This document shows, piece after piece, positions 16,949-24,445 of a stretch of DNA of 64,000 bases (positions within the stretch are counted from its first letter, which is position 1; every line of letters starts with the position of its first letter). The notes below the pieces were generated by a model, which was not told the DNA's origin, did not search any database, and saw nothing but the letters and a program-made list of their open reading frames with translations. Source of the DNA: a phage; NCBI GenBank assembly GCA_024686575.1, contig GCA_024686575.1_4863.1. One strand, 5' to 3'. Made by a program: the position numbers and the translations under genes.

Positions 16949-17710
16949 TTACGCTGCTGGTTCTTCAGCGGTTTTCACTTCAACTGGTTTCATCAGCGAG
17001 TTCGCACAGTCGAAGATAGCATCCAGGAAACCACGGAACGGCTTCATGGCTTCACGCTGGGCGTTCTGACGTTCTTCTTCAATTGCTTCTTCTTGCGCCT
17101 GAATTTCTTCAGCAGTCAGCTCCGGGTGTTCCGTCATGCTTTCTGCCAGGGTCATCACTTTCGGCTGCGCATTCCGAATCGGAATACGGCGGATGACCTT
17201 GGTGATATTCCCGAGCTTCATGCCACCCAGCGCGGTTTCGAACAGCGTACCGAAATCTTGCAGTGGGTCTTCGCTGATTTCCAGTACCGCCGGAGTCGCA
17301 ACCAGACCAAAGGCAATGACCAATTCAACAGCAGTGTCGGTGACGTGCACAGCGAACGGGGTGTCTTCCATCTGCAGGTAATTGTTACCATTATAGGTCA
17401 CCGGAATGAATTTGATTTCTTCCCCTTTCTTCAGGCGCAGTGTGTCGACTGCGGCTTTGTACTGAACTTCGTACAGTTCCGGTTTAACACCGTCAACGTT
17501 ATCCAGTGTAAAGAGCAGGTCGCCAACCGCCATACGGCGCGGCAGTTTGCGTTTGTTGATTTCGCGCAGCCAGACTTGTAAGCCGGTGAATTGAATTGGG
17601 GACAGTATAATTTTAAAGCCGTTGGTTGCTTGCAGGATAGCACCGTCGTCTTCGCTACGTTCGATAGAGCCATTAGCCAGAGTAAGCAGATTGATAGTTT
17701 TCATTTTCAT
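16949..17710 (-). CDS. hypothetical protein
   Basis: 253-aa ORF, ATG start with AAGGAA upstream; 26-mer motif 43 nt upstream. Confidence 0.5.
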   Translation of the reverse strand: MKMKTINLLTLANGSIERSEDDGAILQATNGFKIILSPIQFTGLQVWLREINKRKLPRRMAVGDLLFTLDNVDGVKPELYEVQYKAAVDTLRLKKGEEIKFIPVTYNGNNYLQMEDTPFAVHVTDTAVELVIAFGLVATPAVLEISEDPLQDFGTLFETALGGMKLGNITKVIRRIPIRNAQPKVMTLAESMTEHPELTAEEIQAQEEAIEEERQNAQREAMKPFRGFLDAIFDCANSLMKPVEVKTAEEPAA

Positions 17711-17752
17711 ATTCCTTAAGTGATAGTCGGTTAAAAGATTACCAATGCAATC

Positions 17753-17778
17753 TCACCTAGGTAATATATATCTGAAAT
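17753..17778 (-). promoter_or_regulatory. conserved 26-mer TCACCTAGGTAATATATATCTGAAAT, copy 2
   Basis: 43 nt upstream of the start at 17710. Confidence 0.5.
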
Positions 17779-17795
17779 CTTTTCTAATCTGAGAC

Positions 17796-17835
17796 AAAAA
17801 AAGAAAGGGTAAATCCCCCACCGAAGTGGGGGATT
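17796..17835 (-). terminator. rho-independent terminator
   Basis: Hairpin AATCCCCCAC-CGAA-GTGGGGGATT with a minus-strand T-run; downstream of paralog A. Confidence 0.7.
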
Positions 17836-17846
17836 CGCCAGTCTAA

Positions 17847-19106
17847 TTACTTAGACTTTTCGTACGCACCGATACCGGCGCTGATGTAGCCGTTAACGCC
17901 GGCGATCAGGTTTTTCTGGCCAGTTGCAACGCAACGTTCGGTCCAGGAGATGTACTGGTTCGCAACGGTGATTGCACGACGTGCAACACGGACGTTGGAA
18001 GTCAGTTCAGCGTTGTCGTCGATCTTCACGCCGTCGATACGTTTCAGCAGCGCCTCAATAGCCCGCTCGTACGATTCTTGAGCCTGGTTATTTTTGTGGT
18101 ACGCTTTCACGTTCTCTTCGACTGCTTTACCCAGCTGGTTGAAGAACGCAACCAGAGAAGACAGCGTCTGAGCAGACGGAGTAGAAACAGATTTTTCTAC
18201 GCTGCCTTCAGCATCGATAACGGTGAAGGAAGCTTCCAGGTCATCCCCGTTCACTTTCACGTCAGCTTTACCGATCTGGTTACCCAGCAGTTGAACTTCG
18301 CCCGCTTTGCCTGCAGTGGCTTTGTTAACCGCTGCTGCGAAGCCGCTGTTCAGTTTCCCGCCTTCAACTGCGCTGACCATGCTGGTTGCAGCTTTGACCA
18401 CTGCATCCTGCTCGCCGTAGATGCTGCCGATAGTAGACAGAACACCTTTCAGGACGTTGATGTCGTTACCGACGAACTTACCACCGGTGGTCAGGTTCTT
18501 AATGAACCCACCGCTAACGGTGTCTTTCTTCTGCTTGCCCAGACCACGCAGAGCCGCGTCATATTTCTTAGCGCGCGCCTGAATGGATTTACCCTGGTTG
18601 CTGAACTTGAGCCAGCGATCTTTGATTTTACGGCCTTGTTCTTTCAGCCAGTCGAAGATACGCTGCAGGAACGCTTTGATGTCGTCCCACAGTGATTCAC
18701 GAGCAACCTGACGGCGTTTACGTGCGCCGTAAGATTCCTGCGCAACGCTTACGCGGTGATCGAATGCCCAACGTTTACGGATAGATTCCTGCGCAACGTC
18801 CAGCTGCTCAGCAGCTTCGTCAGGCATATCTTCTTCCACTTCCATTGGCTCTTCGCCATCTTCGCCTTCGCCGTCAGCAGCGGCTTCAGCAGCATCAACT
18901 GCATCCAGCTGTGCATCAGTTTCGTCACCGTCTTCTGCCAGCACGTCTGCTTCTGCGTCCAGCTGGTCGATCGGTTTGGTGTCGTGCTCGATGTCAGCCA
19001 GAGTACCTTCCACGGACTCAGCCGGCAGCTCGATGCCATCTGGAACGACAGTGCCTGCGCCTTCGACAGATTCACGAGCGAGTTTACTTTTTACAAAGTT
19101 AGCCAT
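17847..19106 (-). CDS. paralog A of a tandem pair; candidate protease-processed head/internal protein
   Basis: 419 aa; N-terminus MANFVKSKLARESVE and C-terminus GYISAGIGAYEKSK shared with the adjacent gene; acidic Asp/Glu/Ala-rich N-terminal region with several A/S-x-E sites; terminator downstream. Confidence 0.6.
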   Translation of the reverse strand: MANFVKSKLARESVEGAGTVVPDGIELPAESVEGTLADIEHDTKPIDQLDAEADVLAEDGDETDAQLDAVDAAEAAADGEGEDGEEPMEVEEDMPDEAAEQLDVAQESIRKRWAFDHRVSVAQESYGARKRRQVARESLWDDIKAFLQRIFDWLKEQGRKIKDRWLKFSNQGKSIQARAKKYDAALRGLGKQKKDTVSGGFIKNLTTGGKFVGNDINVLKGVLSTIGSIYGEQDAVVKAATSMVSAVEGGKLNSGFAAAVNKATAGKAGEVQLLGNQIGKADVKVNGDDLEASFTVIDAEGSVEKSVSTPSAQTLSSLVAFFNQLGKAVEENVKAYHKNNQAQESYERAIEALLKRIDGVKIDDNAELTSNVRVARRAITVANQYISWTERCVATGQKNLIAGVNGYISAGIGAYEKSK

Positions 19107-19183
19107 CTTTTTCTATCCTCTAGGCGGTACGCCGTGTACCGCCATTAATGATTTGTCAACTGACGTTCAGTACGTAAAGCGGA

Positions 19184-20461
19184 TTATGCTTTAGACTTTT
19201 CGTACGCGCCAATACCAGCGCCGATGTAGCCGTTCAGGCCGCTGATAACAGTGTTACCAACGTGAGCCACAGCACGGTTCAGAGTCTGGTAGTTACGCAC
19301 AGCCTGGTCAGCTGCAGTGCGTGCATTACGCAGCGCTTCCCACTCGCCTTCGTCGTTGGATTTTTTCAGAGCGGCAGCAGCTTTGGCAGCAGCCTCTTCC
19401 AGTTTCTCAACGTCAGCGTCGTAGCTGCGGAAGTCTTGCAGGACTTTCTCGAAGCCTTTACCGATAACGTCCAGGGCAGACGCAGCAGATGCCAGTGCAG
19501 AAATAGCCGGAGTAGCGATTTCTTTCGTTTCAGAAACGTCACCCGTCGACAGGAAGGCCACTGCGGTGAATTCCTGACCGCCTGCCAGAGTTTTGGTGCC
19601 GGTCTGTACATAGGCGTTGCCTGGCAGTGCCAGAACTTTCTGACCGCCTTCGCCGTCTTCGAATTGCGGCAGTGCGCGCAGTTTCTTCGCAGCGGTACCA
19701 AACAGGGCAACGTCAACAGCGCCTTTAGCAGCGGTTGCGGTACCGTCTGAAGTTTTGGTGATCGCTACAGCAGAGTCAGCCGCCTGAGAGGACAGCTTGT
19801 TGATAGCATCTTTCGCTTTACCGCCGGTCAGCTCTTTCGCGATAGCGATAGAGTTGGCCACATCGAATTCACCTTCGATAGACAGTTTGCTAATAAAGCC
19901 ACCAGAAATGTTTTCTTTCTTCTGTTTGCCGAGCTTACGCAGCATCTCCTGGTAAGCTTTCGCACGTTTCTGCGCGGACTTACCAACGTTGATGTACTTC
20001 AGTTTCAGCTCTTTCGCTTTCGCGATAACTGCTTTACACAGTTCAACGAAGCGTTCGAACAGATCTTTCAGGGTTTCTTTCCAGCCTTCCTGAGCTGCTT
20101 TGGTCATGCCACGGCCACGGCGATAAGATTCGCGTGCCAGTTTGGTACGATCGATAGCCCAACGCTTACGGATAGATTCCTGCGCCACCTCGGTGTGAGC
20201 GATGGCTTCTTCAGGCATCTCTTCACCGTTTTCGATTTTTTCGTCAGCAGCGTCGATAGCAGCTTCGGTACGCTCGGTATCAGCAGCCAGAGTTTCCTGG
20301 TCACCATCGAGCTGTTCCAGCTGACCGTCGATAGACGCAACTTCTGCCAGCTGAACGTCGATGTTCTCTTCTGCCGGTTCAACGTTGCTCAGACCGTCGA
20401 TTACGTCGCCGGTAGCTTCAACGGACTCGCGGGCGAGTTTACTTTTTACAAAGTTTGCCAT
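19184..20461 (-). CDS. paralog B of a tandem pair; candidate protease-processed head/internal protein
   Basis: 425 aa; same N-terminal 15 aa and same C-terminal GYIGAGIGAYEKSK motif as paralog A; shared AQESIRKRWA motif; divergent middle. Confidence 0.6.
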   Translation of the reverse strand: MANFVKSKLARESVEATGDVIDGLSNVEPAEENIDVQLAEVASIDGQLEQLDGDQETLAADTERTEAAIDAADEKIENGEEMPEEAIAHTEVAQESIRKRWAIDRTKLARESYRRGRGMTKAAQEGWKETLKDLFERFVELCKAVIAKAKELKLKYINVGKSAQKRAKAYQEMLRKLGKQKKENISGGFISKLSIEGEFDVANSIAIAKELTGGKAKDAINKLSSQAADSAVAITKTSDGTATAAKGAVDVALFGTAAKKLRALPQFEDGEGGQKVLALPGNAYVQTGTKTLAGGQEFTAVAFLSTGDVSETKEIATPAISALASAASALDVIGKGFEKVLQDFRSYDADVEKLEEAAAKAAAALKKSNDEGEWEALRNARTAADQAVRNYQTLNRAVAHVGNTVISGLNGYIGAGIGAYEKSKA

Positions 20462-20517
20462 TTGTTTCGGTTCCTTTGGTTATAACCCAATTACACGCCC
20501 CTAGATAAGGGGCCCCC

Positions 20518-21075
20518 TTAGGGACGTGCGATTTTTAAAAACACTGCTAACGACGAGATCATATCGGATAACCCGTTCGGACGTGTCAACCAACGTGCCA
20601 GCAGTTCGTGGTCTGCATAAGATAATAGACGCCGGTCAGGCGTGTACGTCTGATGCGCAGTTCCCATTTGGCGAACTTGCCCACTACGGCCGTAAGCCGC
20701 AGCAAGAAGTCGTGAGCCCAGGGAACCGGTTCGCTCTACTTGCTTGGTAGAGTGGATATCGTTCATGTACGATACCAGAAGAACGGACCACTGTCCTGTT
20801 GACACTGTACGGCGTTTACCGTCAAGTATGAACGATGCAGTTTCGTTATAGAACGTATTAAACGTAAAACCGACCTGCGGATATTCGTCATATAATACTT
20901 GTTGGACAGAGTCAGCGCCCATCATGCGGAAATACGGCAGCACGACGGCTGCAGCTTCCAGGGTTTCATGTATCAGTTCGTCGTCATGAACCAGCACGGG
21001 GTTTTGGGTCAGTTTCGCCATGTAGTTTTTAATCAACTTCTCGGCGAGGTTAAAATTCTGGTCATTGTCAAACAT
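20518..21075 (-). CDS. hypothetical protein
   Basis: 185-aa ORF. Confidence 0.5.
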   Translation of the reverse strand: MFDNDQNFNLAEKLIKNYMAKLTQNPVLVHDDELIHETLEAAAVVLPYFRMMGADSVQQVLYDEYPQVGFTFNTFYNETASFILDGKRRTVSTGQWSVLLVSYMNDIHSTKQVERTGSLGSRLLAAAYGRSGQVRQMGTAHQTYTPDRRLLSYADHELLARWLTRPNGLSDMISSLAVFLKIARP

Positions 21076-22041: not shown

Positions 22042-23160
22042 TTACAGTACCGGATTCGCGCCAGCGCGATAGGCATCGATGATTTTGTTTACATCGCCGC
22101 TACCGGACTTCGCCTTGCTAAAGTCTGATTTGTCGAGTTCTTGAGACCCGGTCTGACCACGCGTATAAATGGTTACACGGTTCCAGGTCTGGTCGACAAC
22201 CACGTAGTAAACAGTCAGGGTGTCTTTGAACACACGCTGGCGGATATTGTAATCATCGAAGTCACCGCCCAGCTGAGCAGTCAGATCGTCGATAGTTTCT
22301 TGAGAAACCACCATAACCGAAGACGCGTTGTTGATGGATGGGCTCAGTGTCAGCAGGCCAGACAGCCAGTTGGCGTTTTTCTTCTCCATCATCTTGCGGT
22401 AATAACCGGACTTATCACGGAAGCGGTTCTTACGGTATTCTTCGATAAGGTCATTACACAGCGCGATATCTTTCGCGTAGCTGAGAGAACCGACCTTCGC
22501 GCGCAGCACACGTTCCCAGAAGGTTTTGGTTTGATCGCTGAACGCGATGAGCGTTTTCATTTCGTCGGTCGGCAGAGACTTCACATCAAGACGCAGACGC
22601 ATCGGCAGCTCGACTTTATTACCGTCACGTTCGAAGGTAACAGAGAACACTTTACCGTTGGACAGACCTTCTTGATCATGCAGGAGCTTCAGCGTGTTGT
22701 TCGGCAGCACAGAACCTGCGGACGATTCAGTCGCTACTTTGTTATCGGATTTCTGGCGACGGGATTCACCGACCGCAAGCCCGATTTTATCGTATGACGG
22801 CAGCGTGTGACGGGAGGACTCGCCGATTGCGAAAGACGCTAAGCGAGAACCCGAACGTGCAGCCGCGTCGAGGGCATTACGACGGGTGCTAACCTGGTCA
22901 AGCGTACCAAGGATATCAACCTCAGGAACACCTACCAGAATTGAGATGGCGGTAAGTTGGTTGCCCGCGAGCAGGATTTGGATTTTCTCCAGAATACCTG
23001 GCAGGTAATCTAAGCCCAACAGACTTTGTTCAACCAGCGTGGTGTGCTCGTTGTACAGCACAGAGTTGAATTCTTCCGTCGATTCCGCCCGCTGGCGAAG
23101 CAGCATGGGAAACTTAGAAAGAAAGGAGACGAGCGATGTCTCAAATGTTTTTTCTGCCAT
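22042..23160 (-). CDS. hypothetical protein
   Basis: 372-aa ORF; start only about 22 nt from the divergent + gene at 23183. Confidence 0.55.
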   Translation of the reverse strand: MAEKTFETSLVSFLSKFPMLLRQRAESTEEFNSVLYNEHTTLVEQSLLGLDYLPGILEKIQILLAGNQLTAISILVGVPEVDILGTLDQVSTRRNALDAAARSGSRLASFAIGESSRHTLPSYDKIGLAVGESRRQKSDNKVATESSAGSVLPNNTLKLLHDQEGLSNGKVFSVTFERDGNKVELPMRLRLDVKSLPTDEMKTLIAFSDQTKTFWERVLRAKVGSLSYAKDIALCNDLIEEYRKNRFRDKSGYYRKMMEKKNANWLSGLLTLSPSINNASSVMVVSQETIDDLTAQLGGDFDDYNIRQRVFKDTLTVYYVVVDQTWNRVTIYTRGQTGSQELDKSDFSKAKSGSGDVNKIIDAYRAGANPVL

Positions 23161-23182: not shown

Positions 23183-24445
23183 ATGATGAGTAACGAGACC
23201 GATAAGAACGATCCGGGGTATGACCCGAATACCGACTACGACAATTCGTATCAAAACCCGAATAATATCGATGCAGTACCATCGGTCGCCGACTACTTTG
23301 ACCGTCGACTGTCCGATGCGAAACCCACCACGGCGTACAACGTTAATGATGAGTTATCGGGTTGGAATGACCGTATCCGTCTTACGTTAGGTTTGGGTCT
23401 GGCTGCGCAGCGTGTGACCAACCCCTACATGGGGTTCAACCATATGATGGCGTCGAACCCGACGCCTGTTAACCGTGAGTACGGTGGTCTAACCTTTATT
23501 ACCCGCCCTGACTTCAACTTGTGCTTTGACAACATTGCCAACTCGCGCAAGATGTCGAACATGGCTTCTCAGCCGAAATCGTCACTCGACTATTCCATTC
23601 TGGCAGCGTTAGACCCAGATTTTGAATTGGGGTTCTCTGATTCACCGATGGAAGATGGGCGAAGAAAGAACCGTTTGGGCACGCCATTCATGAAGGACAT
23701 TATGTTTGACAATCTTCAGGCATTCATACCATTGCTGAGTACACAGATGCTGAGCCTCTCGGGGATGCCTGACCAGTCTGTCGATAACTGGATGTCTGAA
23801 GAAGGTTTGATGCGCGAACAGTGGGGTATGGTTGACTCCACACATGAAATCAATAACCAGTACAGCATGTCGATGTCGCTGAACAACCCATACGGCAACC
23901 CTATCATGCGAATGATGGGTGTGTGGCTGGAGTATATGTCCGGCATTAAAATGGGTAAGTTCAAACCGAAGATGCGTAACTCCATCCAACGTCGCATTGA
24001 CTACCAGTCAAGGATGTACGGGTTTAAATACGACGCACTCGGAAACATTACCCGTTTCTGGACAGCGTGTGTTTGTTGGCCGATGAACGATAACGCCGGT
24101 CAAATGGCGAACGTCGATAACACCAAGCCTCAATTAAATGACGACACCACAATTAACCTCAACTGGCAATGCATCGGGGCGCGCTTCGATGACCCATTGT
24201 ACATGGAGATGTTCAACTTGACGGTGTCTATGTTTAACCCGGATATGATGCCGCAACCAGGGAGTGTTGCAGCGGGCAACTTTATCCCGATTGCCGAAGA
24301 CCAGCTTGTGCCGATTGCACCACAGCTACTACCGCTGTTCAACTACTACGGCTATCCGCACATCGACTCCCTGCGTCGTAAGCTGACCTGGTATGTTTAT
24401 CAGGCAGATTACCAATTCATCCTTAAACGAGCGGGCTTACTGTAA
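23183..24445 (+). CDS. hypothetical protein
   Basis: 420-aa ORF, GGAG RBS; stop overlaps the next start (TAATG). Confidence 0.55.
   Translation: MMSNETDKNDPGYDPNTDYDNSYQNPNNIDAVPSVADYFDRRLSDAKPTTAYNVNDELSGWNDRIRLTLGLGLAAQRVTNPYMGFNHMMASNPTPVNREYGGLTFITRPDFNLCFDNIANSRKMSNMASQPKSSLDYSILAALDPDFELGFSDSPMEDGRRKNRLGTPFMKDIMFDNLQAFIPLLSTQMLSLSGMPDQSVDNWMSEEGLMREQWGMVDSTHEINNQYSMSMSLNNPYGNPIMRMMGVWLEYMSGIKMGKFKPKMRNSIQRRIDYQSRMYGFKYDALGNITRFWTACVCWPMNDNAGQMANVDNTKPQLNDDTTINLNWQCIGARFDDPLYMEMFNLTVSMFNPDMMPQPGSVAAGNFIPIAEDQLVPIAPQLLPLFNYYGYPHIDSLRRKLTWYVYQADYQFILKRAGLL

Follow-up and report, generated by a model that had tools for sequence, protein, structure and literature searches.

Tandem internal head protein genes of an SPN3US-type giant phage and the shared leader peptide of their precursors

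Background

The closest described relatives of the genes treated here are gp53 and gp54 of Salmonella phage SPN3US, a phiKZ-like giant phage of the genus Seoulvirus. Our subject is a tandem gene pair on the minus strand at positions 17847-20461 of a 64,000-nucleotide (nt) stretch of phage DNA (GenBank assembly GCA_024686575.1, contig GCA_024686575.1_4863.1), hereafter the window. From the sequence alone, an original prediction had read the two products as packaged internal head proteins with N-terminal parts cut off by the prohead protease, which is published fact for the near-identical SPN3US orthologues. We identify the pair as the gp53 and gp54 genes and find that the leader, the short N-terminal peptide common to both precursors, evolves in concert between the two paralogs.

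In SPN3US, gp53 and gp54 make up 'paralog family A', are similar to pfam12699 and are 34% identical to each other (Ali et al. 2017, PMC5694885). They begin with an identical N-terminal 15-mer containing AXE-12 and SXE-15, described as 'reminiscent of' the capsid targeting sequences of T4, and a mass spectrometry estimate puts each protein at >600 copies per capsid (PMC5694885). Both are missing from a gp243 mutant, whose heads are unstable (PMC5694885). In capsids of a protease mutant, uncleaved gp53 and gp54 are a major component of an inner shell with T = 1 (Heymann et al. 2020, PMC7552025). Cleavage by the protease gp245 was mapped by mass spectrometry in 2023 to ARE-12, AQE-95 and AQE-125 in gp53 and to AQE-124 and ARE-137 in gp54 (PMC10052503, Table 2); semi-tryptic peptides support these sites, and recombinant gp245 cuts gp53 in vitro (PMC10052503).

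Related proteins of other giant phages (phiKZ gp93, gp95 and gp97; Goslar gp58) are injected along with the genome and associate with the early infection vesicle; once injected, phiKZ gp93 co-localises with a lipid vesicle. A Goslar preprint (2026) says of the Pfam family PF12699, whose members are packaged in thousands and injected together with the genome, that its role in nucleus-forming giant phages 'remain[s] a key unsolved mystery'.

Already published for SPN3US gp53 and gp54 are their paralogy, the identity of their N-terminal 15 residues, the Pfam assignment, the location in the virion, the copy number and the cleavage sites. The original prediction is correct, yet it restates these established facts. 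The sole increment of the present analysis over published work is that the leader, and less so the C-terminal tail, evolves in concert between the paralogs. No report of concerted evolution of the gp53/gp54 leader was found in the literature searched, and the observation is apparently unpublished.

Results

Two minus strand open reading frames (ORFs) occupy exactly the predicted interval, an upstream one of 425 amino acids (19184-20461) and a downstream one of 419 amino acids (17847-19106), separated by a spacer of 77 nt. The DNA of the window is 99.5% identical to that of Enterobacteria phage SEGD1 and 99.0% identical to that of SPN3US. The upstream product agrees with SPN3US gp53 at 424/425 residues and the downstream product with gp54 at 417/419, corresponding to one and two substitutions; both are orthologues of high-copy internal head or ejection proteins, and we use the SPN3US names for them. 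RefSeq labels both genes 'internal head protein'. A homologue search in phiKZ-like families, one of the checks proposed with the prediction, was run, and both proteins matched PF12699 (phiKZ-like phage internal head proteins) with scores well in excess of the 27-bit cut-off (gp53, 253.7 bits; gp54, 193.2 bits), the matches spanning profile positions 2-387 of 387. PHROG 2497 ('internal head protein') was likewise matched by both, with E values of 6e-150 and 5e-140.

Published diagnostic peptides allow each gene to be assigned individually. The mature N-terminal peptide of gp53, GWKETLKDLFER, begins at residue 126 of the 425-residue ORF, and the diagnostic peptide of gp54, SLWDDIK, begins at residue 138 of the 419-residue ORF. 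Computed masses of gp53 are 45.2 kDa for the precursor, 13.7 kDa for the propeptide and 31.5 kDa for the mature protein (published propeptide 13.8 kDa, mature 31.5 kDa); those of gp54 (45.1, 14.8 and 30.3 kDa) agree with the published table. The five sites mapped by mass spectrometry in SPN3US are all found at the same positions in the window proteins, and because these sites and both diagnostic peptides are kept, the interpretation as processed head proteins is supported. On whether the proteins occur in virions with processed N-termini, the point on which the prediction had been staked, the SPN3US literature favours it, with >600 copies each and mapped cuts. The pair lies in a phiKZ-like giant-phage head structural gene cluster; its neighbours in the window include orthologues of known head proteins, namely gp45 and gp47, with published cleavage motifs at the published positions, and gp50. 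Nothing was found that contradicts the identification. We put the probability at about 95% that the pair represents 'paralog family A' (gp53 and gp54) from a giant Salmonella phage of the SPN3US/SEGD1 type, encoding PF12699 internal head proteins made as processed precursors.

The two precursors have a common layout of four parts: a basic leader of 12 residues, an acidic tract, a basic segment of 30 residues and a basic mature domain. The gp53 propeptide (residues 1-125; 20087-20461, minus strand, as are all features of the pair) consists of the leader at residues 1-12, the acidic tract at 13-95 (net charge -24) and the basic segment at 96-125 (net +7). In the gp54 propeptide (residues 1-137; 18696-19106) the acidic tract covers residues 13-107 (net -34) and the basic segment has a net charge of +6. 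The leader is net +2 in both proteins. The prediction had described the shared N-terminus as acidic, which does not apply to the shared 12-15 residues, since these are net basic; the acidic tract follows the leader and is poorly conserved in sliding windows. The mature domains span residues 126-425 in gp53 (19184-20086; isoelectric point 9.2) and 138-419 in gp54 (17847-18695; isoelectric point 9.5).

Cleavage-type motifs recur in these propeptides. A[RQ]E occurs at residues 12, 95, 111 and 125 of the gp53 propeptide and at residues 12, 107, 124 and 137 of that of gp54. The extended motif A[RQ]E[SG] occurs four times in gp53, at the positions just given, and five times in gp54 (12, 107, 124, 137 and 344), against a shuffle expectation of 0.06-0.08, and none of 5000 shuffles reached the observed numbers; the repetition is far beyond chance. 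The precursors therefore carry A-x-E motifs in an N-terminal propeptide, as substrates of an S80-type prohead protease (MEROPS; SPN3US gp245). The prediction had spoken of A/S-x-E sites. The A-x-E part stands, such cleavage being published for the SPN3US orthologues. The S-x-E part needs a minor correction: the motif of the SPN3US protease is A-x-E, and SVE-15 is at most a putative site.

gp53 and gp54 are 34% identical over their full length (BLASTP, E 2e-54), and all elements of the predicted paralogy were found as claimed: the tandem arrangement, the identical 15-residue N-terminus, the AQESIRKRWA block and the shared C-terminal motif. Residues 1-15 read MANFVKSKLARESVE in both. In gp53 the corresponding codons (20417-20461) encode the leader MANFVKSKLARE followed by SVE, with the published ARE-12 site at the junction; in gp54 the same peptide is encoded at 19062-19106. 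The internal block VAQESIRKRWA (11 amino acids) is common to both, and its AQESIRKRWA part includes the AQE-95 cut site of gp53. The C-termini are NGYIGAGIGAYEKSKA in gp53 (19184-19234 with the stop codon) and NGYISAGIGAYEKSK in gp54 (17847-17894 with the stop codon), with the consensus NGYI[GS]AGIGAYEKSK.

Across the family, G-L-N-G-Y-I-G-A-G-I-G-A-Y is conserved at the C-terminus and the tail beyond this motif varies. C-terminal trimming between AYE and KSK(A) was considered, as the motif here fits A-x-E, but the Glu varies family-wide (AYAKG, AYGKK, AYSKK, AYKKSK and others), and a conserved cleavage site at this position is, judged on the alignment, unlikely.

At the DNA level the ends of the two genes are clearly more alike than the remainder. 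Over aligned codons, identity is 86.7% in the first 15 codons and 88.9% in the last 15, compared with 51.7% for the genes in full. Uninterrupted identity extends over at most 23 nt (codons 3-10, a run also identical in SPN3US), and the next longest runs are 20 nt (in AQESIRK) and 17 nt (in AYEKSK). Thus the predicted similarity at both ends is real, and 'near-identical' is a mild overstatement, with exact runs of at most 23 nt.

The suggested synonymous/non-synonymous analysis of the paralog alignment was carried out as well. Codons 1-15 contain six synonymous and no non-synonymous differences. The proportion of non-synonymous differences (pN) is therefore 0, and the proportion of synonymous differences (pS) is 0.643, compared with 0.642 gene-wide. 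Because pS in these codons equals that of the whole gene and no amino acid has changed, the comparison indicates that purifying selection maintains the leader peptide and that recent copying alone does not explain it. Recent conversion as the sole cause of the identical N-terminus is rejected for the window on the same grounds.

In order to place the pair in a wider context, 24 related loci were taken from IMG/VR, of which 19 had both genes at full length, and leader statistics were computed on 16 non-redundant genomes. The pair is present in all 16 genomes, and its tandem order is the same at each locus where both genes occur, so the duplication predates all 16 genomes. In an alignment of 22 family sequences, N3, F4, A10, E12 and S13 are invariant, and the pattern N-F-x5-A-[RQ]-E-S is found in nearly all full-length members among 72 homologues. 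Residues 5-9 of the leader vary between phages (VKSKL, AKTRA, AQRKV, AQRKI, IQQRL, MQKRA and others), as does the presence of Ala2. When every ORF of the window was scanned for the leader motif, gp53 and gp54 alone carried it. A role as a general head-protein signal was therefore discarded; gp45, gp47 and gp50, which are other known protease substrates encoded in the window, have unrelated N-termini.

The variable residues are nevertheless alike within a genome. Leaders of the two paralogs match at 191/224 positions within genomes, compared with a permuted mean of 151.3 +/- 6.1, and none of 20000 permutations reached the observed value. Five genomes have fully identical leaders, each with its own sequence. 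In a sliding window, the within-genome excess is found in columns 1-18 (+21 and +12 points), is weak at residues 18-35, appears again at gp53 residues 97-110 and in the last 12 residues (+8), and is approximately zero elsewhere. Paralog-identical DNA tracts at the ATG were found in four lineages with different leaders (L005, 49 nt; L018, 31 nt; L013, 26 nt; L009, 23 nt). The clearest case is L005, in which the 5' end of gp54 is identical to that of its own gp53 at 49/49 nt. When L005 is compared with its sister locus L006, gp54 DNA is 90-97% identical from nt 61 to approximately nt 540 and 72% identical in the first 60 nt. At identical residues in leader columns 2-10, synonymous codons are shared at a rate of 0.74 within genomes and 0.57 between genomes, and the rest of the protein gives 0.59 for both.

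These observations could be read as showing that the identical ends are a mere by-product of recent gene conversion, or of incomplete divergence after tandem duplication, and that the peptide has no functional constraint. The 5' DNA-identical tracts of several lineages (23 nt in the window and 49 nt in L005) and the excess of synonymous-codon sharing in the leader are what such a process would leave behind. However, the six synonymous and zero non-synonymous differences in codons 1-15 of the window, at a pS equal to that of the whole gene, the age of the duplication, the invariant residues with the nearly universal N-F-x5-A-[RQ]-E-S pattern, and the fact that ARE-12 is an experimentally cleaved site all argue for constraint, and we consider a by-product without function highly improbable. 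Taken together, this evidence means that conversion adds to purifying selection and does not replace it. The comparative data indicate that, in addition to purifying selection, gene conversion over short tracts (or local recombination of an equivalent kind) has acted recurrently. For the window itself, conversion is supported for the sub-tract of codons 1-10 only; the sequence signal is clearest in other genomes.

A second feature of the L005 and L006 comparison concerns the mature domain. Between approximately nt 660 and 840 of gp54, in the middle of this domain, DNA identity falls to 53-72% from an otherwise 90-97%, a pattern that suggests mosaic recombination in the variable central region of gp54, the beta subdomain included.

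Searches by sequence with gp53 and gp54 found no match among solved structures. In the AlphaFold2 model of gp53 (predicted local distance difference test score 82.3, predicted template modelling score 0.79) the leader is helical, residues 15-31 are disordered, the propeptide has two helices, and the mature domain is predicted to be a bundle in which four very long helices are joined by a small beta subdomain. When compared with BFVD, this model had matches to 96 predicted viral structures (E <= 0.001). Of the 50 matches listed, all of the named ones are proteins of giant phages or uncultured myoviruses, and wherever a function is named it is that of an internal head or virion structural protein.

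In a Foldseek search, the matches in PDB were mostly tripartite toxins of the ClyA family (SmhA/B, HblL1, NheA, MakA/B/E). Together with the model itself, a long helical bundle plus a small beta subdomain, and with the co-localisation of injected phiKZ gp93 with the lipid vesicle, this could be taken to mean that the mature PF12699 domain is an alpha-pore-forming, membrane-remodelling protein of the ClyA/Hbl/Nhe type that helps to build the early phage infection vesicle. The likeness to a ClyA-type pore-forming toxin was tested and found unsupported, as the helical bundle and beta-tongue showed no significant similarity, and we regard a pore-forming role as extremely improbable.

Three putative non-coding elements flank or separate the two genes. 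The spacer contains a hairpin, GGCGGUAC-ACGGC-GUACCGCC (19123-19143, minus strand), just 5' of the invariant AGAGGA ribosome-binding site of gp54, identified by folding and covariation. Among 15 phages, compensatory changes were found in 6/8 pairs, and 89.7% of cells were paired compared with 73.5% in shuffles (0/500 reaching the observed value). The hairpin lacks a T-tract and is thus not a classical intrinsic terminator. Upstream of gp53, an element recognised by conservation and folding (20462-20530, minus strand) comprises the last gp52 codons, a GC-rich hairpin, AGGGGCGTGT, TAACCAA and AGGAA. In these 69 nt, 47/90 alignment columns are invariant across the 16 genomes, with a mean identity of 0.79 compared with 0.67 for the coding sequence. 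The fold has an energy of -25.3 kcal/mol (z -2.6), and the window contains the element once. It may serve the very highly expressed gp53 and gp54 as a late promoter, a terminator or an RNA-processing element. Directly after gp54 is a terminator-like hairpin with an 11-bp stem and a T-rich tail (17811-17836, minus strand; -23.3 kcal/mol, z -4.2). This strong hairpin suggests that gp53 and gp54 close a transcription unit. No Rfam family matched within 17600-20700. Sigma-70 promoter sites were no more frequent than in shuffles, which is expected because the phage uses its own RNA polymerases.

Several further observations concern the neighbouring genes and the database records. The gp52 orthologue (20518-21075, minus strand), directly upstream of gp53, has a weak match to PF25618 (34.8 bits; cut-off 27), the family of the phiKZ gp91 vertex-binding protein, which fits a head-interior gene cluster common to phiKZ. 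The gp50 orthologue (22042-23160, minus strand; 372 amino acids) has its sole ATE at residue 145, and the resulting fragments of 15.9 and 25.6 kDa equal the published propeptide and mature masses. The published name of this site, ATE-127, corresponds to numbering from the internal Met19, and the discrepancy looks like an inconsistency of numbering or start codon in the literature or annotation. The ORF at 23183-24445 (plus strand) matches PF23971, 'putative phage tail tube protein', at 611 bits, and is named 'putative virion structural protein 3' in RefSeq. An amber mutant of SPN3US gene 255 (am107) is described in the SPN3US literature as a tail tube mutant, and the PF23971 name may misfit the real role of the ORF. 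Finally, deposited 'hypothetical proteins' of Salmonella phages SPFM5-SPFM20 (P0052-P0058; 396-432 amino acids) have peptides of the gp53 C-terminal end at their start (RNYQTLNRAVAHVG...) and the gp53 N-terminal peptide at their end (NFVKSKLARESVEATGD...). This reversed order of segments is probably an annotation or assembly artefact.

Discussion

Based on these results and on published work, we propose the following course of events. gp53 and gp54 would be made as precursors of approximately 45 kDa, each consisting of the basic leader, an acidic helical tract of approximately 85-95 residues, the basic segment of 30 residues and a basic helical-bundle domain of approximately 30 kDa. As published for the SPN3US orthologues, hundreds of copies of each would be incorporated into the prohead; in protease-deficient capsids these make up the T = 1 inner shell beneath the T = 27 capsid. 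gp245 would then cut after A-x-E at residues 12, 95 and 125 of gp53 and 124 and 137 of gp54, upon which the propeptide fragments would mostly exit and the mature basic domains would remain in the DNA-filled head. By analogy with the phiKZ and Goslar homologues, the mature domains would be ejected into the host with the DNA. The comparative analysis adds that the leader may function as a common signal for addressing and processing, which both paralogs present to one partner, its variable residues 5-9 being kept alike within a genome through recurrent short gene conversion, though they differ between phages.

The within-genome similarity of the leaders suggests that both paralogs must show the same leader to one co-evolving partner. 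We give roughly even odds to a specific form of this idea, in which the leader is a lineage-specific 'address label', phage-specific yet alike on both tandem genes as a result of recurrent micro gene conversion (tracts of 23-49 nt from the ATG). The segment just past AQE-95 and the last C-terminal residues would be affected to a lesser degree, and both proteins would dock to one co-evolving prohead receptor, for which gp243, the protease and the inner surface of the capsid are candidates.

It is unlikely, in our estimation, that gp53 and gp54 act chiefly as scaffold or core in shaping the prohead, as opposed to being cargo with a task in the infected cell. Such a role would account for the ordered inner shell of protease-deficient capsids, for the unstable heads of the gp243 mutant without gp53 and gp54, and for acidic propeptides that are removed as in scaffold or core proteins. 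The mature 30-kDa domains, however, stay in the DNA-filled virion at >600 copies each, unlike classical scaffolds, and the PF12699 homologues phiKZ gp93, gp95 and gp97 and Goslar gp58 are seen to be injected and to move together with the DNA of the phage. A scaffold role and a cargo role are compatible with each other.

Some points limit the interpretation of gp53 and gp54 as ejected proteins with a targeting leader that evolves in concert. The leader permutation tests take no account of phylogenetic non-independence among the 16 genomes. The putative conversion tracts set in practically at the ATG and lack homology upstream of it, a pattern that classical gene conversion does not usually show. 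The gene for the protease (SPN3US gp245) falls outside the window, and the enzyme-substrate pair is not visible there. Ejection of gp53 and gp54 themselves is inferred from the phiKZ and Goslar homologues, and capsid targeting by the leader is a hypothesis for SPN3US. The literature searched yielded no experiment on the leader as necessary and sufficient for prohead entry, and PMC5694885 only suggests targeting.

Concerted evolution of the leader offers a handle on the role of PF12699 proteins, and it marks the first ~12 residues as the element for tests of prohead addressing. The leader could also serve to load foreign cargo into giant-phage heads, as has been done with the capsid targeting sequence of T4.

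Among known systems, gp53 and gp54 of SPN3US, ejection proteins of high abundance, are essentially the same genes. Tandem order, neighbours and the five gp245 sites are alike, and the proteins differ by three substitutions in total, the window being slightly nearer to SEGD1 than to SPN3US. phiKZ gp93, gp94, gp95, gp97, gp162 and gp163 and Goslar gp53-gp58 belong to the same family, PF12699, with a predicted helical-bundle fold. They too are high-copy head-internal proteins encoded in a head-gene cluster and cut by a prohead protease after small-x-Glu, and several are injected with the DNA. phiKZ gp86 (PDB 8y6v chain G), a minor capsid protein of the inner surface, is also among the closest known systems. 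The SPN3US type has two paralogs at >600 copies each, whereas phiKZ has 5-8 paralogs at ~100-200 copies each. Immature capsids of SPN3US have a T = 1 inner shell and no ordered inner body has been reported for this phage, in which phiKZ differs; protease specificity is S/A/G-x-E in phiKZ and A-x-E in SPN3US.

The capsid targeting sequence of the T4 proteins IPI, IPII, IPIII and Alt is a putative functional parallel to the leader. In both cases a short N-terminal peptide ending in Glu (10 amino acids in T4 and 12 here) is cut by the prohead protease, and the cargo is a basic protein that in T4 is, and here would be, ejected with the DNA. As a short, protease-removed N-terminal peptide, cut after Glu and common to diverged internal proteins, the leader resembles targeting sequences of the T4 type and may be one by function, although there is no detectable sequence relationship between the two. 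The T4 sequence is carried also by mutually unrelated proteins, whereas the leader is found only on two homologous paralogs and not on gp45, gp47 or gp50. Unlike the T4 sequence, the leader precedes a further propeptide of ~110-125 residues with more cut sites. Targeting by the T4 sequence has been demonstrated by fusion experiments, and a corresponding role is what we hypothesize for the leader of gp53 and gp54.

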